The position numbers and the translations under genes are program-made. From Isurus oxyrinchus (Eukaryota): a stretch of DNA of 64,000 nt. Each line of letters starts with the position of its first letter. The first letter of the stretch is position 1. The stretch covers positions 100,068,001 through 100,132,000 of the forward strand of contig JANJGN010000021.1 in the NCBI GenBank assembly GCA_026770705.1, given 5' to 3'. The notes beneath the pieces are model-generated. The model made no database searches. It worked only from the letters and a program-made list of their open reading frames with translations, and was not told the origin of the DNA. Shown one piece after another: positions 1 to 32,371 of the stretch.

Positions 1-3000
1 AAACTGATTCAGCACCTCAAACTGATACAGCACCTCAAACTGATACAGCACCTCAAACTGATTCAGCACCTCAAACTGATTCAGCACCTCAAACTGATAC
101 AGACCTTGAAAATAAAGCATTCCCTCAAACTATTACCATCCCTCAAACTAATACATTCCCTCAAACTAATAGTGTCCCTCTATATAGTACGGCCCCTCAA
201 ACTGATACAATTCCAGCATCTGATACAGCCCCTCAAACTAATACCATCCATCAAACTGATACAGTCCCTCAAAATGATACAGTCCCTCAAACTGATACAG
301 TCCCTCAAAATGATACAGCCCCTCAAAATGATACTGTCCTTCAAACTGCTACAGTCCCTCAAACTTCTACAGTCCCTCAAACTGAGACAGCCCCTCAAAC
401 TTCTACAGTCCCTCAAACTGAGACAGCCCCTCAAACTGAGACAGCCCCTCAAACTGATACAGCCCCTCAGACTGATACAGCCCCTCAGACTGACACAGTC
501 CCTCAAACTGAGACAGAACCTCACACTGAGACAGAACCTCACACTGAGACAGAACCTCACACTGAGACAGCCCATCAAACTGATAGAGATCCTCAAAATA
601 ATACTTTCCCATAAACTAATACATCCCCTCACACTAATAGAGTCCATCAATCTTGTACAGCCCCTCAAACAGATAAAATTCCACCATCTGATACAGCCCC
701 TCAAACTGATACAGAACCTCACACTGAGACAGACCCTCACACTGAGACAGCCCCTCACACTGAGACAGAACCTCACACTGAGACAGAACCTCACACTGAG
801 ACAGAACCTCACACTGAGACAGAACCTCACACTGAGACAGCCCCTCAAACTGATACAGCCCCTCAATGTTTTAGAGTCCCTCAAACAAATACCCTCCCTC
901 AAACTGATACCCTCCCTCAAACTGATACAGCCCCTCAAACTGATACAGCCCCTCAAACTGATACAGCCCCTCAACGTTTTAGAGTCCCTCAAACAAATAC
1001 CATCCCTCAAACTGATACAGCCCCTCAAACTGATACAGCCCCTCAACGTTTTAGAGTCCCTCAAACAAATACCATCCCTCAAACTGATACCCTCCCGCAA
1101 TCTGATACAGCCCCGCAATCTGATACAGCCCCGCAATCTGATACAGCCCCTCACACTGATACAGCCCCTCACACTGATACAGCCCCTCACACTGATACAG
1201 CCCCTCACACTGATACAGCCCCTCACACTGATACAGCCCCTCACACTGATACCGTCCCTCAAACTGATACTGCCCCACAATCTGATATGGTCCCACAATC
1301 TGATACGGTCCCACAACCTGATACGGTCCCACAATCTGATACCCTCCCTCAAACTGATACCGTCCCTCAAACTGATACCGTCCCTCAAACTGATACCGTC
1401 CCACAAACTGATACAGCCCCTCAAACGGATATCGTCTTTCAAACTGATACCGTCCCACAGTCTGATACCGTCCCACAATCTGATACAGTCCCACAATCTG
1501 ATACAGTCCCACAATCTGATACAGTCCCACAATCTGATACAGCCCCTCAAAGTTTTAGAGCCCCTCAAACTAATACCATCCCTCAAACTGATCCAGTCCC
1601 TCAAACTAATACCATCCCACAAACTGATACAGTCCCACAATCTGATACAGTCCCACAATCTGATACAGTCCCACAAAATGATACAGTCCCACAATCTCAT
1701 ACAGTCCCACAAACTGATACAGCCCCTCAAACTGATACAGCCCCTCAAACTAATACCATCCCTCAAACTGATCCAGTCCCTCAAACTGATACCGTCCCAC
1801 AAACTGATACCGTCCCACAATCTGATACAGTCCCACAATCTGATACAGTCCCACAATCTGATACAGTCCCACAATCTGATACCGTCCCTCAAACTGATAC
1901 AGCCCCTCAAACTGATACCGTCCCTCAAACTGATACCGTCCCTCAAACTGATACCGTCCCTCAAACTGATACCGTCCCTCAAACGGATACCGTCCCTCAA
2001 ACGGATACCGTCCCTCAAACGGATACCGTCCCTCAAACGGATATCGTCTTTCAAACTGATACCGTCCCACAGTCTGATACCGTCCCTCAAACTGATACAG
2101 TCCCACAATCTGATACAGCCCCTCAAACTGATACAGCCCCTCAAAGTTTTAGAGCCCATCAAACTAATACCATCCCTCAAACTGATACAGTCCCACAAAA
2201 TGATACAGCCCCTCAAACTGATACAGCCCCTCAAACTGATACAGCCCCTCAAACTGATACAGCCCCTCAAACTGATACAGCCCCTCAAACTGATACAGCC
2301 CCTCAAACTGATACAGCCCCTCAAAGTTTTAGAGCCCCTCAAACTAATACCATCCCTCAAACTGATCCAGTCCCTCAAACTAATACCATCCCACAATCTG
2401 ATACAGTCCCACAATCTGATACAGTCCCACAAAATGATACAGTCCCACAAAATGATACAGCCCCTCAAACTGATACAGCCCCTCAAACTGATACAGCCCC
2501 TCAAACTGATACAGCCCCTCAAACTTATCCCATCTCTCAAACTGATACAGTTCCTCAAACTGATACAGCCCCTCAAAATAATGCACTCATTCAAACTAAT
2601 ACGTCCCCTCAAACTAATACATTCCCTCAATCTAGTACAGCCCCTCAAACTGATACAATTCCATCATCTAATACAGCCCCTGAAAGTGATGAAGTCCATC
2701 AAACTGACACACTCCCTCAAACTGACACACTCCCTCAGACTGACACACTCCCTCAGACTGACACTCCCTCAAACTGCCACACTCCCTCAAACTGCCACAC
2801 TCCCTCAACCTGACACACTCCCTCAAGCTTATACAGCCCCTCAAGCTGATACAGCACTTCAAACTGCTACAGTCCCTCAATCTAACACAACCCCTCAAAA
2901 CGATACAGCACTTCAAACTGATACGGTCCCTCAAACTGATACAGTCCCTCAAAATGGCACACTCCCTCAAACTAATACCATCCCTCAAACTAATACATCC

Positions 3001-3363
3001 CCTCAAAATAATAGTCCCTCAAACTGATACAGCCCCTCAAACTGATACAGCCCCTCAAACTGATACAGACCCTCAAACTGATACAGACCCTCAAACTGAT
3101 ACAGACCCTCAATATAATAGTCCCTCAAAATAATAGTCCCTCAAACTAATGCAATTCCACCATCTAATACAGTCCCTCAAACTGATACAGTCCCTCAAAC
3201 TGATACAACACAACACCTCAAACTGATACAACACCTCAAACTGATACAGCCCCTCAAATTGATACAGTCCCTCAATCTAGTCCAGCCCCTCAAACCAATA
3301 CAGTCCCTCAAACTGATACAGCCCCTGAAACCAACACAGATCCTCAAACTAATAAATCCCTCA
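1..3363. repeat. 18-bp tandem satellite (consensus ~CCCTCAAACTGATACAGC), resumes briefly at 4248-4305
   Basis: The 18-nt period is directly visible, with variant sub-blocks (CACACTGAGACAGAAC, CCCACAATCTGATACAGT). The array runs off the left edge of the window. Confidence 0.95.
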
Positions 3364-16084: not shown

Positions 16085-19000
16085 GTGACCCACTCAAGTA
16101 GCACCAGCAAAACCCCATCAGACCCCAAACACCAGAAAAACATATCAGACCCCAAACACCAACAAAACCCATCAGACCCCAAACACCAGCAAAACCCATC
16201 AGACCCCAAACACCAGAAAAATCCATCAGACCCCAAACACCAGAAAAACCCAAGACACCCAAACACCATCAAAACCCATCAGACCCCCAAACACCAGAAA
16301 ATCACATCAGTTCCCCAAAGACCAGCGAAGCCAACAGACCCCAAACACCAACAAAACCCATCAAACCCCCAAAAACTAACAAAACCTATCAGACCCCAAA
16401 ACACCAACAAAACCTATCAGGCCCCAAACACCAGAAAAACCCATCAGAAACCAAACACCAGAAAAAACCAACAAACCCCAAACACCAGAGAAACCCATCA
16501 GACGCCCAAACTCCAGAAAAACCCATCAGACACCCAAACACCAACAAAAGCCATCAGACCCCAAAACACCAACAAAACCCATCAGACCCCCAAACACCAA
16601 CAAAACCCATCAGACCCTCAAACACCATCAAACGCCATCAGACCCTCAAACACCATCAAACCCTCAAACACCATCAAACCCCATCAGACCCCCAAACACC
16701 AACAAAACCTATCAGGCCCCAAACTCCAGAAAAACCCATCAGACACCCAAACACCAACAAAACCCATCAGACCCTCAAACACCAACAAAACCCATCTGAC
16801 ACCCAAACACCAACAAAACCCATCTGACACCCAAACACCAACAAAACCCATCAGACCCCAAAATACCAACAAAACCCATCAGACCCCCAAACACCAAAAA
16901 AACTCATTAGACCCCAAACACCAACAAAACCTATCAGGCCCCAAACTCCAGAAAAACCCATCAGACTCCCAAACACCAACAAAACCCATCAGACCCTCAA
17001 ACACCATCAAACCCCATCAGACCCTCAAACACCATCAAACCCTCAAACACCATCAAACCCATCAGACTCCCAAACACCAACAAATCCCATCAGATCGCCA
17101 AAACCTAACAAAACACATCAGACCCCCAAACACCAACAAAACCCATTAGACCCCAAACACCAACAAAACCCATCAGACACCCAAACACCAACAAAGCCCA
17201 TCTGACACCCAAACACCAACAAAACCCATCAGACCCCAAAACACCAACAAAACCCATCAGACCCCCAAACACCAACAAAAGTCATTAGACCCCAAACACC
17301 AACAAAACCTATCAGGCCCCAAACACCAGAAAAATCCATCAGAAACCAAACACCAGAAAAAACCATCAAACCCCAAACACCAGCAAAACCCAACAGACAC
17401 CCAAACACCATCAAAACCCAACAGACACCCAAACACCAGAAAATCACATCAGTTCCCCAAAGACCAGTGAAGCCAACAGACCCCAAACACCAACAAAACC
17501 CATCAGTCCCCCAAAAACTAACAAAACCTATCAGACCCCAAAACACCAGCAAAACCTATCAGACCCCCAAACACCAACAAAACCCATTAGACCCCAAACA
17601 CCAACAAAACCCATCAGACACCCAAACACCAACAAAACCCATCAGACACCCAAACACCAACAAAACCCATCAGACACCCAAACACCAACAAAACCCATCT
17701 GACACCCAAACACCAACAAAACCCATCTGACACCCAAACACAAACAAAACCCATCAGACCCCAAAACACCAACAAAACCCATCAGACCCCCAAACACCAA
17801 AAAAACTCATTAGACCCCAAACACCAACAAAACCTATCAGGCCCCAAACTCCAGAAAAACCCATCAGACACCCAAACACCAACAAAACCCATCAGACCCT
17901 CAAACACCAACAAAACCCATCTGAACCCAAACACCAACAAAACCCATCTGACACCCAAACACCAACAAAACCCATCAGACCCCAAAACACCAACAAAACC
18001 CATCAGACCCCCAAACACCAAAAAAACTCATTAGACCCCAAACACCAACAAAACCTATCAGGCCCCAAACTCCAGAAAAACCCATCAGACTCCCAAACAC
18101 CAATAAAACCCATCAGACCCTCAAACACCATCAAACCCCATCAGACCCTCAAACACCATCAAACCCTCAAACACCATCAAACCCCATCAGACCCCCAAAC
18201 ACCATCAAAACATCAGACCCCCAAACACTAACAAAACCCATCAGACCCCAAACACCAACAAAACCCATCAGACCCCCAAACACCAACAAAACCCATCAGA
18301 CCCCCAAACACCAGCAAAAATCAGCAGACCCCCAAACACCAGCAAAACCCAACAGAACCCCAAACACCAGAAAAGCACATCAGTTCCCCAAAGACCAGCG
18401 AAGGCAACAGACCCCAAACACCAACAAAACCCATCGGACCCCCAAAAACTAACAAAACCCCATCAGACCCCCAAACACCAACAAAACCCATCAGACCCCC
18501 AAAAACTAACAAAACCCATCAGACTCCCAAACACCAACAAATCCCATCAGACCCCCAAAAACTAACAAAACCCATCAGAGCCCCAAACACCAACAAAACC
18601 CATCAGACCCCCAAACACCAACAAAACCCATCAGACCCCCAAAAACTAACAAAACCCATCAGTGCCCCAAACACCAACAAAACCCATCAGAGCCCCAAAC
18701 ACCAACAAAACCCATCAGACCCCCAAAAACTAACAAAACCCATCAGAGCCCCAAACACCAACAAAACCCATCAGACCCCAAACACCAACAAAACCCATCA
18801 GACCCCAAACACCAGAAAAACCCATAAGACCACAAACACCAGAAAAACCCATAAGACCCCAAACTCCAGAAAACCCCATCAGACCCCCAAAGACCAAAAA
18901 AAATCCATCAGACCCCCAAAAACCAGCAAAACCCAAAAGACCCCCAAGTAACAGAAAAGCACATCAGTTCCCCAAAGACCAGCGAAACCAACAGACCCCA

Positions 19001-19780
19001 AAACACCAACAAAACCCATCAGACACCCAAAAACTAACAAAACCAATCAGACCCCAAAACACCAGCGAAACCCATCAGACCCCCAAACACCAGCGAAACC
19101 CATCAGACCCCAAACACCAGAAAAACCCATCAGACCTCCAAACACCAACAAAACCCATCAGACCCCAAACACCAACAAAACCCATCCGACCCCCAAACAC
19201 CAACAAAACCCCATCGGACCCCAAACACCAACAAAACCCATCAGACCCCCAAACACCAACAAAATACATTAGACCACAAACACCAACAAAACCCATCAGA
19301 CCCCCAAACACCAACAAAACCCACCAGATCTCCAAACACCAACAAAACCCCATCGGATTCCAAAAACCAACAAAACCCCATCAGACCCCAAACACCAACA
19401 AAATCCATCAGACCCCCAAACACCAACAAAACCCATCAGACCCCCAAACACCAACAAAACCCATCAGACCCCCAAACACCAACAAAACCCCATCAGACCC
19501 CAAACACCAACAAAATCCATCAGACCCCCAAACACCAACAAAACCCCATCAGACCCCAAACACCAACAAAATCCATCAGACCCCCAAACACCAACAAAAC
19601 CCATCAGACCCACAAACACCAGCAAAACCCATCAGACCCCCAAACACCAACAAAACCCATCAGACCCCCAAACACCAGCAAAACCCATCAGACCCCCAAA
19701 CACCAGCAAAACCCAGCAGACCCCCAAACACCAACAAAACCCAGCAGACCCATTCTCAAGAACCAGCAAACCCAATGTGC
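16085..19780. repeat. 28-29-bp satellite (CAGACCCCCAAACACCAACAAAACCCAT), intronic
   Basis: Direct periodicity with strong C/A strand bias. Decayed copies extend to ~19990 and also appear at 14140-14245. Confidence 0.95.
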
Positions 19781-20700: not shown

Positions 20701-23700
20701 CTGTTAAAGGAAGGAGAGGCATTTAAAAACTGTTCATTATCAGAGAGATAGGAACAGAGCCAGTGCACGATATACAAAGGCAGAGAGACAGAGGGAGAGA
20801 GTCAGAAAAATCACAGAACTAGAGAAAGAATGGGTTATATATACAGATAAAAGAACACAGAAATGGACAGACACAAAGAGTCACGGAATGAGACAAATAC
20901 AAAAAGCAAGATAAACAGAGGAGAGAGAGATTCAGAGAGGTGAGAGGTGGGGGGTGACAAACACACAAACAGAGAGAGAGAAACACAGGGAAAGGAATAG
21001 ACACACACACACATGCAGACACACACACAGACACAGATAGCAATGAGGTATTAAGTTTATTTGACACAGAATGGAGAATGATTCACACAGTTACACACAG
21101 ATCCAGAGGATGTTTGAGGATCAGCTTACTCTGTGTAGGATTGTAGCCGCTCTTCCCTCTCACTGTAAAACAAGGAATGTTCAGTGAGTGATGAGAGACT
21201 GACAGAAAATCAGAGAGAAGAGGGACTGGAACTCTGAGTGAAAGAGAGAGATGGACCCTCCTTCACACTGAGACCCTCACTCCTGCCCAGACCCGAGCCC
21301 CTCGCTCCCGCCCTGACCCGAGCCCCTCACCAATCCTGGGACCTCCCCCTCTACCATGAGACCCTCACCACCCCGCACCTCGGGGCCCTTCCACCCACTC
21401 TCCCATCGACCTGTGACCTTACACAACGCCCTGAGCCACTGAACCCCGAGACCCTTCACCCAACCCTGAGGAACAGCCCAGCAACCTGGGCCATTCCTTC
21501 ATAAACTAAGATCCGCTCCCCTACAGCCTGAGCCATCCCTACCCTGAGACCCTCCCCCAAACACGTAGGTTCCTCCCCCCACACTGAGCCCCTCACAATC
21601 CCCCACGAGACCTCCCACCCACCCCCACACTGGGCGACCCTCTCTCAACCCCTCCAAAACCCTGAACCGCCAGTGAGGGGCTACCATTGTCTTTCCAATT
21701 CCTACCTTTCCTCTTATAGACGACAACAGCCACAACGATGAGAGCGATGATCCCGATGATCCCGAGGATAATCCCAACCGGAACAGGAACCTGGGACTGA
21801 GACTTTGGTTCTGTGATATTAAAGTGAGAGTGAGTGAGGGTGTGAGAGAGCTAGAGGGAGAGATGGAGAGGAAGAGAGAGAGAATGAGAGAGAGAGAGCA
21901 CGAGTGGGAGGGAATGAATGAGAGAAAGAGAGAATCAGTGAGAAAATCAGGATTATGTCGGGTTATAAGGCACAAAAACAGGCCATTCAGCCCGAACAGT
22001 CCATGCTGGTGTTTATGCTCCATTCCTGCCTCCTCCCATCTTTCCTCATCACTTTCCATCATCATAACCCTCTGTTCCCTTCTCTCTCATGTAGGTGTCC
22101 AGCTTCCCCTTAAACTCGTCCACACTATCTGCTCCAACCACTCCCTGTGGTACTGAGCTCCACATTCTCACTGCTCTCTGGGCAAAGGAGTTTCTTCTGA
22201 ATTCCCTTTTAGATTTTGTGGTCACTATTTTATATCGATGGCTCCTAGAGGAAGAAAATCCTCTTTGTATCGACTTTATTGAAACATTTTCATCATTTTA
22301 AAGATATTGGGTCACGCTTCAGCCTGATTTTTCAAGAGAAAAGAGACCCAACCTATGAATCCTTTCCCAATATGTATACCCACGCATTTCTGGGATCATC
22401 ATTGTGAATCTTCTCTGCACCCTCTCCAATGCCTCAATATCATTGTTACAATATCATGACCAGAACTGCACACAGTACTATAAGGATGCTCTAACTAAGG
22501 TTCAACACAGGTTTAGCATCGCTTCCCTACTTTTCAATTCTATCCCTCCAGAATTAAAACTTAGTGCTGGATTGTTTTTATCTTTTATGTCCTTCCTAAC
22601 CTGCGGTGGAAATTCTACTGATTGATGTATTTCTACTCCCAGATTCCTTTGTTCCTCTATCCCATCCAGACTCGCAGCTTCCAAGTAAGAATTCACCTCC
22701 CTATTCTTCCTACCAAAATATACTTGCTCTCATCTGTGTTGAACTTCATTTGCTATTTATACAAGTTTATTACTGTCCTCCTGTAATGTGCAGCAGTCCT
22801 CCTCAGTATTGATTCTCCATCCCAATCTGGTGTCATCCATGAATTTAGAAATTTTGTTTTTATTTCCAAATGGTTTATGTAAATTGTGAACAGCAGTGGT
22901 CCCAGCACTGATCCATGTGGAACACCATTACCCATCTTCTGACACTTTGAATAACTCTCCTTTACTCCCTCTCTCTGCTTTCTCTCTTGAACCCAGCTAG
23001 CAATCCATTCTGTCACTTATCCCCTGGCTCCACATTCTCTGACTCTATTATGGGGCAGCTTATCAGAGGTCTTTTAAAAATCCAGATAAATTAAAGTTAC
23101 TGCATCATTCTTGTATACTCTCTCTCTCTCAAAAATAGAATAAGGTTGGCAAAAAAAGATTTCCCTTTTTAAAATCCATGTTGACCATTCATATACATAT
23201 TCTTTCTTTCTAGATGTTCTTCTATTCTCTCCTTTAGGAGGGATTACATTATTTTTCCAATCATCAACGTTAAGCTGACTGATATTAAATTCCAGGTTAC
23301 ACTGGGCCCTATCACACTCTTATATCCCAGGACAGAATTAATCCTATCCCACTGTAACATTCCAGGATACACTGGATCCTGTCATACTGTACTTCCCTAT
23401 ATTTCACAGGGTCCTGCCATACTGTCCTATCCCAGGATTCACGGGGTCTGTCATACCAGCCTGTCCCGATTCACTGGCTTCTGTTATACTGTATTAACCT
23501 AGGAATCACAGGGTCCTGTCACCTACACTATCCCAGGATTCAGTGCTTTACATTATGCTGTACCATCCCAGGATTCACTGGTTTTTGTCATACTGTACTA
23601 TGCATGGATTCACTGGTTCCTCTCATACTATATATCCCAGGATACACTGGTTGCTGTAATACTGCACTATCCCACAAATCCATGCTTTCTGATGTACCAT

Positions 23701-26700
23701 ACTATTCCAGGATTAACAGGGTCCGGTCAGATTATATGGATTCAATGGTTACAATCATGTTGTACTATCCCACTATTCACTGCTTTCTGTCGTACTGTAT
23801 GATCACAGGATCACAAGGTCCTGTCATACTGTACTGTCCAAGGGTTCACTGGTTTCTGTCATACTGTATTATCCCAGGACTCACAGGTTTCTGTCATACT
23901 GTACTGTCCTAAGGTTCACTGGTTTCTGTCATACTCTACTGTCCAAGGGTTCGTTAGTTTCTGTCCTACTGTACTATCCTGTGATTCACAGCATCCTGTC
24001 ATACTGTACTATCTCAGGGTTCACTAGTTACTGTCATACTGTACTGTCCAAGGGTTAACTGGTTTCTGTCATGCTGTATTATCCCAGGATTCACTGGTTT
24101 CTGTCATACTGTACTGTCCAAGGGTTCACTCATTTATGTCATACTGTAGTGTCCAAGGGTTCACTGATTTCTGTCATACTGTACTGTCCAAGGGTTCACT
24201 GCTTTCTGTCATACTGTACTATCCCAGGATTCACTGGTTTCTGTCATACTGTACTGTCCAAGGGTTCAGTGGTTTCTGTCATACTGTACTGTCCAAGGGT
24301 TCATTGTTTTCTGTCCTACTGTACTATCCTATAATTCACAGCTTCTTGTCATACTGTACTATTCCAGGGTTCACTGGGTTCTGACATTCTGTACTAATTG
24401 GGATTCACTGGTTCCTGTCATGCTGTATTATCCCAAGTTTTAGAGGGTCCTATCATACTGCACTATACCAGTATTCTCAGACGTCTGTCATACTGAACTA
24501 TCCCAGGATTCACTGGTTTCTGTCATATTGTACTGTCCAAGGGTTCATTGATTTCTGTCCTACTGTACTATCCTATAGTTCACAGCATCCTGTCATACTG
24601 TACTATCCCAGGGTTCACTAGGTTCTGCCATTCTGTACTGTCCCAGGATTCACTGGTTCCAGTCATGCTGTACTATCCCAGGAGTCAGAGGGCCCTATCA
24701 TACTACACTATCCCAGTATACTCTGATTTCTGTCATACTGAAGTATCTCAGGATTCACTGGGTCCTGTCATACTATGCTATCTCAGGATTAACTGGTTGC
24801 TGTGATACTGGACTATCCCATGAATCACTGGTTTCTGATGTACTGTACTATTCCAGAATTCACAGGGTGCTGTCATAGTGTACTATCCCAGGATTCATTG
24901 CTTTCTGTCATACTGTACTATCCCAGGGTTCACAAGGTCCTGTCAATAATGTACTATCTCAGGCTTCACTCATTCCTGTCACACTGTACTAGCCCAGGAT
25001 CAACAGGGTCCTGTCATACTGTACTGTCCCAGGATTCACTGGATTCTGTCATACTGTACCATCCTACTGTTCATGGTATCCTGCCAGACTGTACTCTCCC
25101 AGGATTCATTGGTTTATGTCATACTATACTATTGTATGATTCATGGTGTCCAGTAATACTGTAATATTCCAGGATTCACTGGGTCCTGTGTTCTCTGTAC
25201 TAGCCCAAGATTCATGCAGTCCTGTCATACTACACTAACCCAGGGTTCTCAAGGTCCTGTCACATTGTATTATCCCAGGATTCACAGGGTCCTGTCATAT
25301 TGGACTATCCCATGATTCACAGATTTCTATCATACTCTGTTTTCCCAGGATGCACAGGGTCCTGCCATACTTTACTCTCTCAGGATTCACTGGTTTCTGT
25401 CATACTGCACTATCATATGATTCACAGGGTCCTGTCATACTGTACTATCCCAGCATTCACTGGGTACTGTGTTTATTGCATTAGTTTCATGAGGTCCTGT
25501 CATTCTACACTACCCCAGGAATCACAGCGTCCTGTCATAATATACTATCGCAGGATTCACTGCTTTCTGCCATACTGTGCTATCTCAGGATTCTCAAGGT
25601 CCTGTCATTCTGTACTATCCCACTGGGTCCTGTCTTACTATACTATCTCGTGATTAACTGGTTGCTGTGATACTGTACTGTCCCAGGGTTCACTGGTTTC
25701 TGACATACTGTATTTTCCCAGGATGCACAGGGTGCTGTAATACAGTATTGTTCCAAGGTCACTGGTTTTGGTCATACTGTACTACCCTATTATTCATGGG
25801 GTCCTGTAATACTATACTCTTCCAGGATTCACTGGGTCCTGTGTTTTCTGCACTAGCCCAAAATTCATGAGGTCCTGTCATACTCCACTACCCCAGGATA
25901 CTCAAGGTCCTGTCACACTGTACTATCCCAGGAATCATGTGGTCCTTTACTATTGTACTATTTTAGGATTAACTGTTTTATTGAGGAAGAAATATGTGCA
26001 CAGATAATCTATCTCCACTTGGAGAGGCAAGGTTTGATCAGTCATCATGGCTTTGTCAGAGGGAGGCCATGCCTAACAAATTTGATTGAATTTTTTGAGG
26101 AAGTGACCAGAGTGGATAGGGAGCAGCTGTTCCCCTTAGTTGAAGGGTCAGTCACAAGTGGACATAAGTTCAAGGTATGGGGCAGGAGGTTTAGGGGGGA
26201 TGTGAGGGAAAATGTTTTTACCCGGAGAGTGGTGACGGTCTGAAATGCACTGCATGGGAGGGTGGTGGAGGCGGGTTGCCTCACATCTTTTAAAAGGTAC
26301 CTGGGTGAGCACTTAGCACGTCATAACATTCAAGGCTATGGGCCAAGTGCTGGTAAATGGGATTAGGTAAGTAGGTCAGGTGTTTCAGGTGCAGGCTCGA
26401 TGGGCCGAAGGGACACTTATGCACTGTGTGATTCTGTGATACACTACCCCAGGATTCTCAAGGTCCTGTCACACTGTACGATCCCAGGATTCATGAGGTC
26501 CTTTAATACTGTACTATTCCAGGATTCACAGGGTCCTGCCATACTGCACTATCCCAGGGTTCACTGGTTTCTGTCATGCTGTAGTATTCCAGGATTCATT
26601 GATTTCTGCCATACTGTGCTATCCCAGGATTCTCAAGGTTACGTCATTCTGTACTATCCCAGGATTCATGGGGTCCTGTGTTTCCTGTACGAGCCCAGAA

Positions 26701-29700
26701 TTCATGGTGTCCTATCATACTGTACTATCCCGGGATTGACGGGGTCCTGTCAAACTGTACTATCCGAGAATTCACTGCTTTCTGTCATATGGTACTATCC
26801 CAGGATTCACTGGTTTCTGTCATACTGCAGCAGCCCAGGATTCAGTGTCCTGACATACTATAAAATCCCAAGATTCACTGATATCAGTCATACTGTACTA
26901 TCCCCGAATTCACAGGGTCCTGTCATACTGTAGTATTCCAGGATTCACTGGTTTCTCTCATACTGCACCATCCCAGGATTCACTGGTTCCTGTTATAATG
27001 TACTATCCCAGGTTTCATCAGGTCCTGTCATGCTGTACTATCCCAGGATACTCTGTCTTGGTTACTCTAGCACAGGCGTGATGACTGTGACTCACTAAAA
27101 GTGAATATTAATTTCCCTCTCTCTGGATCCTGGGCCTCAGCCTGTCCTGGGCTGACAGCTCAGCACTGACCCTCCCTCCTGTGACCCTGGTCTGAGGCTG
27201 GGTTCTCTCTAACAGTGAGAAACAGTCTTACCATAAATCACCACCTTCTCCTCCTCCAGCCCACTGTGTTCCACCCGACAGGAATACTCAGCCTGATCCT
27301 CTGGATCAAACTCCATCCATTTCCGGATCTGGTAGGTCCTGTCATGATTGGGTAAGATCCCAGTGGACAGGGTCTCTTCGATCAACACTCCGTCTCTCCA
27401 CAGAGTCATCTCGATGGCTTGAGGGTAAAACCCGGTGACGACACAGGACAGCTGGTTAGAATCACCCAGACGGATAAAGAACACGACGGGGGCAACTGAG
27501 AGATAAAGAAAGAGGAGTCAGTACAGGAACCTCGAGATAGAGACTCCCAGGCAGCAACCCATTCACCGATTCCCAGTCAACCCGGCACTCACCGACCCTC
27601 ACACCCCCTCACTCACCGACCCTCACACCCCCTCACTCACCAAGCCTCACACCCCCTCACTCACTGACCCTCACACCCCCTCACTCACCGACCCTCACAC
27701 CCCCTCACTCACCGACCCTCACACCTCCTCACTCACCGACCCTCACACCCCCTCACTCACCGACCCTCATACCCCCTCACTCACCGACCCTCACACCCCC
27801 TCACTCACCGACCCTCATACCCCCTCCCTCACCGACTCTCACACCCCCTCTCACCGACCCTCACACCTCCTCACTCACCGACCCTCACACCCCCTCACTC
27901 ACCGACCCTCACACCCCCTCACTCACCGACCCTCACACCCCCTCACTCACTGACCCTCACACCCCCTCACTCACTGACCCTCACACCCCCTCACTCACCG
28001 ACCCTCGTACCCCCTCACTCACCGACCCTCACACCCCCTCAGTCACCGACTCTCACACCCCCTCACTCACCGACCCTCACACCCCCTCACTCACCGACCC
28101 TCACACCCCCTCACTCACCGACTCTCACACCCCCTCACTCACCGACACTCAGACCCCCTTACTCACTGACCCTCACACCTCCTCACTCACCGACCCTCAC
28201 AACCCCTCACTCACCGACCCTCACACCCCCTCACTCACCGACCCTCACACTTGCTCACTCACTGACCCTCACACCCCCTCACTCACTGACCCTCACACCC
28301 CCTCACTCACCGACCCTCACACACCCTCACTCACCGATTCTCAATCCCCCCTCACTCACCGACCCTCAGACCCCCTCACTCACCGACTCTCAGTCCCCCC
28401 CTCACTCACTGACTCTCAGTCCCCCCCTCACTCACTGACTCTCAGTCCCCCTCTCACTCAATGACTCTCAGTCCCTCCCTCACTCACCGATTCTCAGTCC
28501 CCCCCTCACTCACCGACTCTCAGTCCCCCCCTCACTCACCGACTCTCAGTCCCCCCCTCACTGACCAACTCTCAATCCCCCCCTCACTCACCGACTCTCT
28601 GTCCCCCCCTCACTCACCGACACTCACACCCCCTCACTCACCGACTCTCAGTCCCCCCCTCACTCACCGACTCTCAGTCCCACCCTCACTCACCGACTCT
28701 CAGTCCCACCCTCACTCACCGACCCTCAGTCCCTCCTCATTCACCGACTCTCATCCCACCCTCACTCACCGACTCTCAGTCCCCCTCACTCACCGCCTCT
28801 CAGTCCCCCTCTCACTCACCGACTCTCAGCTCCCCTCTCACTCACCGACCCTCAGTCCTCCCCTCACTCACCGACTCTCAGTCCCCCCCTCACTCACCGA
28901 CTCTCAGTTCCCCCCGTGACTCACCGACTCTCAGTCCACCCCTCACTCACCGACTCTCAGCTCCCGCCTCACTCACCAACTCTCAGTTCCCCCCCTCACT
29001 CACCAACTCTCAGTCCCCCCCTTCAGTCACCGTCTTTCAGTCCCCCCCTCACTCACCGACTCTCAGTCCCCCCCTCACTCACCGACTCTCAGCCCCTCCT
29101 CACTCACCGACTCTCAGTCCCTCCTCACTCACCGACTCTCATTCCCCCCTCACTCACCGACTCTCAGAGCCCCCCTCACTCACCGAATCTCAGTTTCCCC
29201 CACTCACTCACCGACTCTAAGTTCTCTCTGTCCATACTCCAGGTACTTCCTCAGCCATTCGATACATTCCTCCTCCAGGTAATGTTTCCATCGCTGTTTG
29301 TCAAACTTGTACTGGTCCCAGGTGTTTTTGAAGTTCTCTCCCCATGGGACCGGGGTCACCCACACCATGTGCTGTGGGTCGAAGCTGATAAAATCTCCTC
29401 CGTTCCATCCCCTCTGGTGGATCCCCCTCCTGGTTCCATCATCGTTCAGGTCACAGCCGATCAACATCTGGTGTGTGTGGATTCCTGTCAATCAAACACA
29501 TGGAGCCAATCCGACACTGTCCTACAAGGAGACTCCACCCATCGCACACTCAGCCAATCAGCCTCTGGCTCCCATATCCCAATCCACTCCTGGTTACTCC
29601 CCATCCCAGACACTCTCAATCCACAGGAAGAGACCAAGTGGTGGGACAACAAGGACTCACCTCCCGACTGGTTGGTCCGGGCCATGAGGATCGGAATATA

Positions 29701-32147
29701 CTTTTTGATATGCTGCTCCTGTTCCTGAGCAAGCATCGTCTTCCGCTCCCAGGACTCACGCCCCTCACTCTCCACCATCCATTGCTCCCGGGGGATCAAC
29801 ACTTTCCCATCGCTGTCATACATAACAAACTGAACGCCATCCACATAACCGACAGCTACAAACTCCGGAATACCAGGAATCGGAGTCACGCCGGTGAGGA
29901 AATACCGGAGAGTGTGAGAGCCTGAAACACAGAGAGAGAAAGAGAGACATCAGGACATGTACCCCTAACACCAACCCCAAAACCCCAACTCAACAGAAAG
30001 GTAGACCCACCTCACCCTGATTTCCTTCTCCAATTCCCCACAGGTGACCTGAAGCCTGTGATCTCCCATCCTGACACTTCACTGATCCGAGCTTCCCAGT
30101 ATCCAGCCATTGGTTCTTTAGCCAAACATTTTAAATCAGTGCCCTCTGGTTCTCAATCCTTCCTCCAGTCAGGACAGCTTCCCTCGATCTACTCTGTCAA
30201 GAACCTAATGATTCTGAACACAGCCATCAAATCTCCTCTCAACCTCCTCCCCCAAGAGAAAATCCCCAGCTTCTACAGTCTGTTAAAGTAATTAATGTTC
30301 CTCATTCCAGAAACCATTGTGGAAAATCTTTTCTGCATCCTCTCTAATGCCATCACATCCTTCCTAAAGTGTGGTGCTGAGAGCTGGAGACAGTACTCTA
30401 GTTGAGGCTAAACCAGTGTTTTACACTGATTTATCATAACTTCCTTACTCTGCACTCTATGTCTCTATTTATAAACACTAGAATCCCGGGTCCTTTTTTA
30501 ACCACTTTTTCTACCTGCCCTGCCACCTTCAATTTGTGCACATGTAGCCCCAGCTCCCACTGTTCCTGTACACCCTTTAGAATTGCATCCTTTATTTCTC
30601 ACTAAAATGGATCACTTCACATCTTTCAGCATTAAATTTTAACAGCTGCTTGTCAGCCCATTTCACAAACCCCACTATGTTCTGTTGAAGTCTATCACTG
30701 TCCCCCTCACAGTTTACAACACTTCCAACTGCTGTGTTGTCTGCAAATTGTGTCCTGTATGCAAAAGTCCACCTCATATCTGTATAATATTTATTTATTA
30801 CACATATATATAGCCTGCAGATACTGATCCTTGGGGTGGTTAGAATCTGGGATGCAATGTCTGAGACCGTGATGGAGATTTAATTTAGGATTGCAAGAGA
30901 GAATTGGATAATTATCAGAAGAGAAAAGAAGTGAGAAAAAATGGGAAGAAGGTGAAGGAATGGGTCTAGCTGAGTGGCGCTGGCAGAGAGCCAGCAGAGA
31001 CACAACCTGCCAAATAACCTCCTCCTGTTCTGTAATGGTTCCATAATTCTATTGAGAGGGCAAATAAGCGGCAAAACTGTGACAGATGGAGCTCAGCAGG
31101 GGCAAATGCGAGGTTAGACACTTAGATTTAATGAATAATATTGGAATATTTTCGATATGTCTAAACTTCTATATTGTTGTTTGTTACTGCACAGGAAAGA
31201 AAGTGGAAAGAATAGGAAAGCAGAATGAGATAATGCTCTGGTACAGAGGGATCTGGGTGTCCTTGTACATGAGTCACTAAAAGTCAGCGTGCAGGTACAG
31301 CAACTGATGAGGAAGGCAAATGGAATAGCAGCCTTTATTGCAAGGAGGATTGAGTATTAAAATACAAAAGTCTTGCTAGAAATCTACAGGGCATTGTTGC
31401 GACTGCATTTCAAGTACTGTGTACAGTTTTGGTATCCTCATTAAAGGAGGAATATACTTGCATTGGAGACATTCAGAGAAGCTTCTTTAAGCTGGTTCGT
31501 GGGATAAAGGGCTGAGGAAAAGGTAAAGCAGGTTAGGCCTATAATCGTAGTTTAAAGAATGAGAGATGATCTTATTGAAATGAATAAGATTGTGAAGGGT
31601 CCTGACAGAGTAGACAGACTCAAGGAGCTACACGCTCCTCCTGTCCCAATAACCCAATATTAATCACCCTCCCCGCTCTCCCTCTCCAGCCATATGTCGC
31701 TGTGTTTCACTTTCACCATGGTCTTTCTCACTCTCCAGCCACAGTACCCACTCTAGCACAAACCCTCTCACACTCTATCATTCACGTACCCAGAGTTAAT
31801 GCCCCAATACCCAGACTGGCATTGCCCCCTCACACCCTATCATTCACTTACCCAGAGTTAATGCCCCAATACCCAGACTGGCATTGCCCCCTCACACCCT
31901 ATCATTCACTTACACAGGGTTAATGCCCCAGTACCCAGACTGGCATTGCCCCTCTCAGACCCCATTACGCACTGACCCAAGATTAATGCCCCAATACCCG
32001 GACTGTCATAGCCCCTCTCAGAACCTATCACTCACTGGCCCAGGATTAATGCCCCAATACCCAGACAGGCATTGCCCCTCTCACACCCCAATACTCACCT
32101 GCAGACACCTCTCCACACAGAAGGACCAGCACTATCAGTCCAATCAT
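20666..32147 (-). CDS. MHC class I alpha chain, probably non-classical (7 coding exons, 339 aa)
   Basis: Exon lengths 49+261+273+264+105+33+35 = 1020 nt form an open frame from ATG to TGA. All introns are GT-AG and phase 1. The layout is leader, alpha1, alpha2, Ig-C1 alpha3, TM and two cytoplasmic exons. Confidence 0.95.
21130..21162 (-). CDS. MHC class I exon 6 (cytoplasmic, VRGKSGYNPTQ)
   Basis: 33-nt exon, TTTTACAG| ... A|GTAAGC, carrying the conserved class I cytoplasmic Tyr. Confidence 0.88.
21706..21810 (-). CDS. MHC class I exon 5 (connecting peptide + TM, EPKSQSQVPVPVGIILGIIGIIALIVVAVVVYKRK)
   Basis: ATCACAG| ... G|GTAGGA, 105 nt, with a hydrophobic helix and basic stop-transfer. 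Not captured in frame by the ORF track. Confidence 0.92.
21950..23295 (-). mobile_element. Decayed CR1 LINE fragment (intron 4)
   Basis: NGVPHGSVLGPLLFTIYIN, EEQRNLGVEIH and GIELKSREAMLNL remnants. Confidence 0.85.
23295..27055. repeat. 35-bp satellite (CTGTCATACTGTACTATCCCAGGATTCACTGGTTT) in intron 4
   Basis: Period 35 (e.g. 24206 and 24241), diverged at the ends, interrupted by a CR1 piece. Confidence 0.92.
25980..26440 (+). mobile_element. Internally deleted CR1 fragment inserted in the 35-bp satellite
   Basis: HGFVRGRPCLTNLIEFFEEVT is joined directly to RVDREQLFPLVEGSVTSGHKFKV and the CR1 3' end. Confidence 0.85.
27232..27495 (-). CDS. MHC class I exon 4 (alpha3, Ig C1-set)
   Basis: LSCVVTGFYPQAIEMTLWRDG..PNHDRTYQ..YSCRVEHSGL, 264 nt, CTCAG| ... 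G|GTAAGA. Confidence 0.97.
27585..29220 (-). repeat. Splice-donor-derived minisatellite filling intron 3 (24-nt block ~27585-28330; 25-26-nt block ~28330-29211)
   Basis: The minus-strand unit (A/G)GTCG|GTGAGTGAGGGGG.. matches the real exon 3/intron 3 junction AGAGTCG|GTGAGTGAG. Confidence 0.93.
29212..29484 (-). CDS. MHC class I exon 3 (alpha2)
   Basis: GIHTHQMLIGCDL..DFISFD..W..WD..HYLEEECIEWLRKYLEYG with the C101/C164 pair, 273 nt. Confidence 0.97.
29661..29921 (-). CDS. MHC class I exon 2 (alpha1)
   Basis: GSHTLRYFLTGVTPIPGIPEFVAVGYVDGVQFVMYDSD..PREQWM..WER..RTNQSG with the N86 glycosylation site, 261 nt. Confidence 0.97.
30040..30780 (-). mobile_element. Decayed CR1 fragment (intron 1)
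   Basis: FADNTAVGSVVNCEGD..KFNAERCEVIHF remnants. Confidence 0.8.
30830..31620 (+). mobile_element. Decayed CR1 fragments (intron 1)
   Basis: QRDLGVLVHESLKVSVQVQQ, KANG..AFIAR and YCVQFW remnants. Confidence 0.75.
31745..32098. repeat. ~61-62-bp tandem repeat at the 5' end of intron 1 (~5.5 copies)
   Basis: TTAATGCCCCAATACCCAGACTGGCATTGCCCC recurs at ~62-nt spacing and abuts the exon 1 donor. Confidence 0.85.
32099..32147 (-). CDS. MHC class I exon 1 (signal peptide MIGLIVLVLLCGEVSA)
   Basis: ACAATG start context, hydrophobic core, VSA|G cleavage site, G|GTGAGT donor. Phase 1 joins to GSH of alpha1. Confidence 0.92.
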
Positions 32148-32255: not shown

Positions 32256-32371
32256 CTGATTGGTTCAATGATATTTCAGGACCAATCATAATAAAAGCAG
32301 GTTGTGAGTCATCAGTCTCCGGCAGAATAGGCTCAAAACAGTTTGCAGAAACAAATAGAAAAAGCGAAAGT
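32256..32371 (-). promoter_or_regulatory. MHC class I proximal promoter: ISRE, X1/X2, Y box, CCAAT
   Basis: In gene orientation: ACTTTCGCTTTTTC (32371-32358), CCTATTCTGCCGGAGAC-TGATGACTCA (X1-like/X2, ending 32305), TGATTGG (Y box, 32288-32282) and CCAATCAG (32263-32256). This is the same order as in tetrapod class I promoters. Confidence 0.75.

Follow-up and report, generated by a model that had tools for sequence, protein, structure and literature searches.

What kind of class I molecule is encoded by a gene that lacks residues with which the groove holds both ends of a peptide, and what might such a groove present? The question is raised by a locus of Isurus oxyrinchus in a 64,000-nucleotide stretch of contig C21 (100.07-100.13 Mb; hereafter ‘the window’). 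According to PMC8236899, PMC1174912 and PMC2193201, the N-terminus of a bound peptide is held by Y7, Y59, residue 63, Y159 and Y171, and its C-terminus by residue 84, T143, K146 and W147. A preliminary description of the locus had proposed an intact but non-classical gene, with a specially remodelled, basic groove that may bind an atypical or anionic ligand, and perhaps belonging to a new sub-lineage. Here we ask which parts of that picture hold, and what they might mean for the ligand. Residue numbers throughout are those of HLA-A2, transferred by means of landmark residues.

Gene structure and promoter

Positions 29212-29921 contain two minus-strand exons encoding the α1 and α2 domains of an MHC class I heavy chain, the best PDB match of both being the nurse shark class I structure 6LUP (E-values of 8e-26 for α1 and 2.5e-27 for α2). 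The whole heavy chain occupies seven minus-strand exons with an open spliced frame of 339 codons, and its six introns are all GT-AG and all in phase 1 (Table 1), such that the gene is indeed intact; exons 6 and 7 lie outside the coverage of the reads examined. Both disulfide pairs are present in the protein, as is a single N-glycan sequon (N86), and a tblastn search of the 64-kb window with this protein found no second class I gene. A satellite with a 28-nt unit extends upstream of the gene (43875-63994; ~720 copies, 20 kb), the same unit recurs in 133 copies directly downstream (16102-19751), and an 18-nt array lies at 1-3363.

The promoter claimed for the gene is also present, in the form of an X-Y-CCAAT block that aligns with two other promoters in this genome, those of its classical-type class I gene and of a paralogue at C21:99.68 Mb. 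The motif names used here (IRF-E/ISRE, X1/X2 and Y) are those of mammalian consensus elements. As the X2-Y search pattern was composed after the sequence had been seen, the independent test is the alignment to the classical-type promoter; the strict pattern had no match in 10 other loci, and conservation is visible by alignment only. The IRF-like pattern, taken alone, is no more frequent than chance would have it (one found, against 2.9 expected). The X2 box of the 99.68 Mb paralogue differs from that of the window gene.

Table 1. Features of the class I locus and related genes on contig C21 (positions in the window, unless prefixed by C21)
Feature	Position	Strand	Basis or remark
Class I-type promoter	32259..32371	-	motif match and alignment
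IRF-E/ISRE-like site	32371-32361	-	
X1/X2-like box and Y box	32322-32282	-	
Second CCAAT	32263-32259	-	
Exon 1, leader peptide	32099..32147	-	ATG at 32147; joined to α1 in 4/4 contig sets
Exon 2, α1 (Y7, L45, S59, R62, K63, L66, R84, N86)	29661..29921	-	
Intron 2, 176 nt, GT-AG	29485..29660	-	exactly spliced out in contigs
Exon 3, α2 (Q96, C101, R116, F143, T146, W147, W156, Y159, E163, C164, W167, Y171)	29212..29484	-	
Three α2 replacement variants (exon 3)	29311, 29301, 29292		α2 helix positions 149a, 152, 155; within 20 nt
24-25-nt tandem repeat throughout intron 3	27586..29186	.	
Exon 4, α3 Ig-C1 domain	27232..27495	-	joined to α2 in contigs
35-nt tandem repeat arrays, intron 4	23351..27049	.	
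Exon 5, connecting peptide and transmembrane (TM) helix	21706..21810	-	aligns with TM region of relatives
Exon 6, cytoplasmic, conserved tail tyrosine	21130..21162	-	predicted: splice sites and homology
Exon 7, cytoplasmic end and stop codon	20666..20700	-	predicted: splice sites and homology
UBA-type paralogue	C21:99.685 Mb		leader, α1-3 and TM open
UBA-type paralogue	C21:99.645 Mb		frameshift in α2
UBA-type paralogue	C21:100.275 Mb		stop codons
UBA-type fragments	C21:93.2-96.3 Mb		one set at 93.2-93.9 Mb
UGA-, UDA- and UEA-like genes	C21:98.4-99.3 Mb		

Transcripts and variation

Intron 2 is exactly absent from the contigs of 4/4 runs (three samples, three studies), with the RNA status of these runs being a guess and one of them flagged ‘probably DNA’; the loose ends of the spliced contigs are the leader and α3 exons, giving splicing of exons 1-4. 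Because the single 100% match to α2 in a search of the genome is the window itself, we infer that these contigs are most simply transcripts, and not a processed copy. They report spliced forms, not expression level or tissue, and drop rare alleles.

Across 534 nt, contigs from three samples contain four variable sites, two of which are also found in one DNA sample: one silent site in α1 and three replacements in α2, namely Y149aN, D152G and R155Q. Four combinations of these variants occur over the assembly and four other samples, one further change (in α3) lies in contig loose ends, and no silent α2 variant was seen among the contigs. The clustering in α2 was spotted post hoc, three replacements out of three is not significant, and we treat the pattern as a hint only. 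Overall, the polymorphism observed is low, for a small number of samples and with contigs that hide rare alleles. The 99.645 Mb paralogue with the frameshift also carries Q155 and may have been its donor. DNA contigs X5, X11 and X13 show five differences in α1 and six in the intron, which we rejected as alleles, since all match the 99.68 Mb paralogue; a raw DNA run (X23) yielded one read only.

Assignment to the UBA lineage

A search with α1 returned 28 proteins, 27 of them shark or shark-like records and one from chicken; the best single-copy models were those of white shark (95%) and basking shark (87-90%). Also among the 28 were AAC60347 from nurse shark and AAC60348 from horn shark, and Verissimo et al. 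2023 (PMC10751288) label the former Gcirratum_UBA in their supplement. We aligned 98 chondrichthyan and outgroup proteins with that of the window, drawing on 120 further listed matches. A quick tree of 98 rows, with one row removed because its coverage was <85%, places the window gene among 43-47 UBA-type rows; an α1-3 tree of 36 rows chosen from the 98 has a 19-row clade of UBA plus window with support of 100/99, and an α1-2 tree of 34 rows, including six genes from the same genome, has a 14-row clade, again with 100/99. One row of the UBA clade carries a published UBA label and the others are assigned by the tree, whilst the 44 ‘classical-type’ rows used for comparison are our own tree-based grouping, UAA-2-like genes included; the houndshark alleles are taken as UAA. 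Approximately unbiased (AU) tests reject the union of the window gene with eight classical-type rows (p 2.6e-51), and also with its own genome's classical-type gene (p 1.4e-4).

The trees drew on the genome's own UDA- and UEA-like genes in place of published UCA, UDA, UEA, UFA and UGA sequences, the UDA-, UEA- and UGA-like labels having been given by eye against the PMC10751288 supplement. These genes have only 26-38% α2 identity to the window gene; the UDA- and UEA-like rows fall outside the UBA clade in the α1-2 tree, and in both trees that clade sits among UAA-type rows, away from them. UBA is described as derived from UAA, and as the closest to it among shark lineages, in PMC12562908. Identities over α1, α2 and α3 are 83/87, 87/91 and 84/88 to the white shark protein, 58/87, 59/91 and 71/86 to nurse shark UBA, and 45/86, 51/91 and 51/88 (52-58% per domain) to the genome's own classical-type copy. 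On phylogenetic grounds, the window gene is an intact member of a known shark non-classical class I lineage, UBA; the description of the gene as a non-classical member of a multigene lineage, and outside classical UAA, is borne out by the clade, the AU tests and the paralogues on C21.

White shark XP_041068578 is the probable orthologue: it is 95% identical over α1-3 and has the same residue at 35/36 groove positions, differing over α1-2 by A59 in place of S59, D119 in place of N119 and six other residues outside the groove. It is already in RefSeq under a generic name, with basking shark relatives at XP_078422897/902. With the UBA lineage of AAC60347, and of AAC60348 in the same clade, the window gene shares the loss of Y59 and T143 and the presence of K63, L45, L66, W156 and E163; it stands apart in the minority states F143, T146, H95, I113, H114 and N119. 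Two of these, F143 and T146 (5/47 UBA rows each), together with the separate branch that lamniform genes form within UBA, are what a new class Ib lineage or sub-lineage could be argued from; that branch mirrors species kinship, as do other order-specific branches, and the fully supported nesting of this typical UBA gene inside the clade refutes the idea at the level of lineage and renders it very improbable overall. That the gene is a divergent allele of classical UAA, for which one might cite its class I-type promoter, its tail tyrosine and the descent of UBA from UAA, is refuted by the AU tests; also against it are the little variation seen among samples and a separate gene with Y59, T143 and K146 at C21:66.13 Mb, on the same contig and 34 Mb from the window.

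Also within the UBA clade, a long-branched pair from zebra and epaulette shark (P0062, P0072) has T143, W146 and S63, and is possibly an orectolobiform sub-lineage.

Genomic setting

A proteasome beta exon at C21:65.45 Mb lies 0.68 Mb from the classical-type gene; the genome search scored none near the window, whose gene does not have the UAA-type linkage to psmb8/psmb9/tap. PMC10751288 describes UBA as multicopy and MHC-linked, away from the class Ia region, in a cluster separate from that of UDA/UEA and flanked by c4 and rxrb. Copy number and distance from the class Ia gene fit UBA, a lineage that is, like the window gene's group, multicopy with pseudogenes and placed on the MHC chromosome. 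The window's UBA group (99.6-100.3 Mb), however, adjoins the UDA/UEA-like genes (98.4-99.3 Mb), an adjacency with no obvious fit to the layout in PMC10751288.

The paralogue at 99.685 Mb matches the window gene closely in α1 (84/87) and α3 (85/88), but in α2 at only 64/91 positions (70%), and nucleotide differences show the same contrast (6/261 in α1 versus 37/273 in α2). Set beside the 35/36 groove positions shared with the white shark orthologue, this suggests gene-specific α2 grooves on homogenised frames, and perhaps exon-level conversion or shuffling.

Some further class I genes were observed along the way. A UEA/UCA-like class Ib gene lies at C16:53.768-53.780 Mb, on a contig of 122.6 Mb that is not the MHC contig C21; its α1-3 exons are open, its splice sites are GT-AG, and it has a TM-like exon. 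It is not the duplicate of one C21 copy, because it is 87-91% identical to seven of them; elasmobranch class Ib genes are all placed on the MHC chromosome in PMC10751288, and the C16 placement may reflect translocation or misassembly. The classical-type gene at C21:66.13 Mb has its leader exon ~13 kb upstream of α1, and an 845-codon stop-free frame spanning α1, intron 2 and α2. Within the class Ib region there are also UAA-like genes (UAA-2-type by eye) with stop codons, e.g. at C21:96.89 Mb.

The groove as a lineage trait

The window gene has Y7, M35, S59, K63, R84, N86, Q96, C101, H114, R116, N119 and F123, and on the side of the α2 helix F143, T146, W147, Y159, C164, W167 and Y171; every residue that the preliminary description had listed as retained or changed was read correctly, and formal alignment confirms that Y59, T143 and K146 are truly absent. 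What does not stand is the notion of a groove remodelled in this gene specially. Counted over 43 UBA rows (the window, one unstable row and two duplicates being left out), Y59 is lost in 43/43 and T143 in 41/43, whereas classical-type rows keep them in 39/44 and 43/44, respectively; K63 is found in 39/43 UBA rows, and K146 is lost in 37/43. All four anchor changes occur together in 34/43 UBA rows versus 0/44 classical-type rows (32 of the 44 have none of the four), a comparison between rows that share descent, for which p-values overstate independence. Across this alignment, the loss of Y59, E63, T143 and K146 is a UBA-wide trait, and not special to the window gene.

Several of the lesser departures also dissolve on comparison. 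R35 occurs in 0/44 shark and ray classical-type sequences, with M35 in 29/47 UBA-clade rows, and H114 is present in HLA-A2 itself, such that neither counts as a change. R116 is found in 15/47 UBA rows and N119 in seven of the 47 (and in 1/44 classical-type rows), the white shark orthologue having D at the latter position; F123 and R84 are ordinary non-mammalian states. The groove had also been called basic: net charge over 36 pocket positions is indeed +2, yet this equals the UBA mean of 2.0 (35 complete rows of 43) and is reached or exceeded in 14/42 classical-type rows, whose mean is 0.86 (42 of 44 rows). Judged by its residues, this is a mildly basic groove, of a kind that is ordinary in UBA. 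On the Kyte-Doolittle scale, UBA pockets are more hydrophobic than classical-type ones (0.64 versus 0.04; window 0.37), and average side-chain volume is equal in UBA and UAA.

The more instructive pattern lies in which positions vary. Near-fixed over 44 UBA rows, and shared by the window gene, are L45 (42 rows), K63 (40), L66 (39), W156 (34), E163 (37) and W167 (44), and in UAA five of these positions (45, 63, 66, 156 and 163) belong to the variable sites; conversely, positions 80, 84, 146 and 147 are more variable in UBA than in UAA, with an entropy at 146 of 2.74 versus 0.66 bits. Among UBA genes, groove positions vary more than others (1.56 versus 1.01 bits). In the aligned rows, with pockets assigned from HLA pocket lists, the A/B-pocket end of UBA is fixed and the F end variable, the reverse of UAA, and this inverted conservation suggests a conserved, lysine-centred ligand site.

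We found no literature on the UBA groove or its ligand; the original descriptions of UBA, UDA and UEA lay outside our search. The anchor losses and the K63 pattern may already be in Almeida 2020, Almeida 2021 or Bartl 1997, and we claim no priority for them.

What the groove might present

The window gene has the fold, exon plan and promoter block of classical UAA (nurse shark 6LUP, houndshark), and keeps Y7, R84, W147, Y159 and Y171; it differs in the loss of Y59, E/Q/N63, T143 and K146, and in the low polymorphism seen. The β2-microglobulin contacts Q96 and D122, which it shares with UAA, are found in 43/43 and 41/43 UBA rows, and R48 is kept as well. An AlphaFold model, built for the white shark orthologue and not for the window gene's own product, has a pLDDT of 80.6, with 6LUP as its best match (rmsd 2.5 A). 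By sequence and model, the protein is likely to pair with β2-microglobulin at the cell surface; it may possibly contact CD8, in that acidic residues are kept in the α3 loop named for nurse shark in PMC10140343.

The function of UBA is called unknown in PMC10751288. We suggest that what its groove presents is likely to be a non-canonical ligand of a restricted kind, and not ordinary peptides gripped at both ends, and put at roughly 0.8 the probability that UBA identity and non-canonical ligand binding hold jointly. In the absence of Y59, K63, which is fixed across the lineage and supported by E163 and W167, would sit at the free α-amine site or repel such an amine, with L45, L66 and W156 providing a fixed hydrophobic wall, so that a head group that is acidic or N-blocked might suit the A/B end best. 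The F end (Y77, F123, F143 and T146, with R84 and R116) would lack the T143/K146 bonds to a C-terminus and, differing from gene to gene, could tune specificity for each paralogue; recognition would likely be by an NK-type receptor or an innate-like T cell. The weakest step is the placing of K63 at the α-amine site as a fixed N-blocked or acidic head-group site with the F end tuning specificity, and this we hold tentatively, at somewhat below even odds. Against a non-canonical reading, the gene retains Y7, R84, W147, Y159, W167 and Y171, which would suffice for a degree of peptide binding, and its net charge of +2 is within the classical range. An R62-E163 bridge is moreover compatible with peptide binding in H-2Dd (PMC1174912).

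The alternatives overlap in part with our preferred reading. UBA may bind short peptides of the ordinary kind, their ends held less strictly and their motif narrow (e.g. acidic), an option that we regard as a serious one, with the odds against it. Narrow-motif binding of this kind is seen in HLA-E/Qa-1 and in a fastidious chicken BF2 allele, and it would sit well with the six retained terminal-binding residues, the promoter held in common with a classical-type gene, the greater variability of UBA groove positions and the fact that all three α2 variants are replacements on the helix, at 149a, 152 and 155. It is the lineage-wide loss of Y59 and T143, and a lysine replacing an acid at 63, that argue against it.

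Alternatively, the groove could be empty or irrelevant, and the molecule, like M10.5, HFE or MIC, a chaperone or a ligand for a receptor. The A end would be closable by the fixed K63, E163 and W167, the F-end anchors drift among paralogues, and M10.5, which has lost terminal anchors, crystallised empty (PMC1174912). We consider this unlikely: the near-complete groove identity with the white shark orthologue, alongside paralogues that differ in α2, fits gene-specific selection on the groove, and average side-chain volume is as in UAA.

Binding of a lipid or small metabolite, in the manner of CD1, chicken YF1 or MR1, seems to us distinctly improbable. The hydrophobic bias of UBA pockets would speak for it, and an invariant groove lysine recalls K43 of MR1, a groove lysine at a different position; the window groove, however, contains K, R, R, R, D, E and three H, its hydrophobicity is below the UBA mean, and the MR1 matches of the fold search, which come after 6LUP, reflect a shared fold. 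Moreover, the CD1-like shark genes are reported to be UFA and UGA (PMC12562908), lineages separate from UBA (PMC10751288).

For presentation of a non-canonical ligand, H2-M3 and M10.5 offer functional analogues only, both being class Ib molecules with pocket changes, at A in H2-M3 and at A and F in M10.5. H2-M3, which binds N-formyl peptides, has W167L, Y171F and H9 (PMC2193201); the window gene has W167, Y171 and L9, ruling out an H2-M3-type formyl-peptide pocket. M10.5 is without Y7, Y171 and Y84 (PMC1174912), positions that the window gene keeps.

We would go further only as speculation, and with considerable doubt: an ancient, UBA-wide site at the A/B end (K63, E163, W167, L45 and L66), extending from sawfish to sharks, might capture a conserved ligand of microbial or stress origin, anionic or N-blocked, with differences between paralogues and alleles at the F end and on the α2 helix (149a, 152 and 155) tuning the rest; a shark analogue of MR1 or H2-M3 reached by a different route.

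The gene itself is of little weight, given that the UBA lineage has been described and that a 95% identical white shark protein is public. The by-product is a residue-level hypothesis for UBA, that of a fixed K63 site paired with a variable F end; if it is true, the oldest jawed vertebrates would have come to innate-like ligand display by a route of their own.
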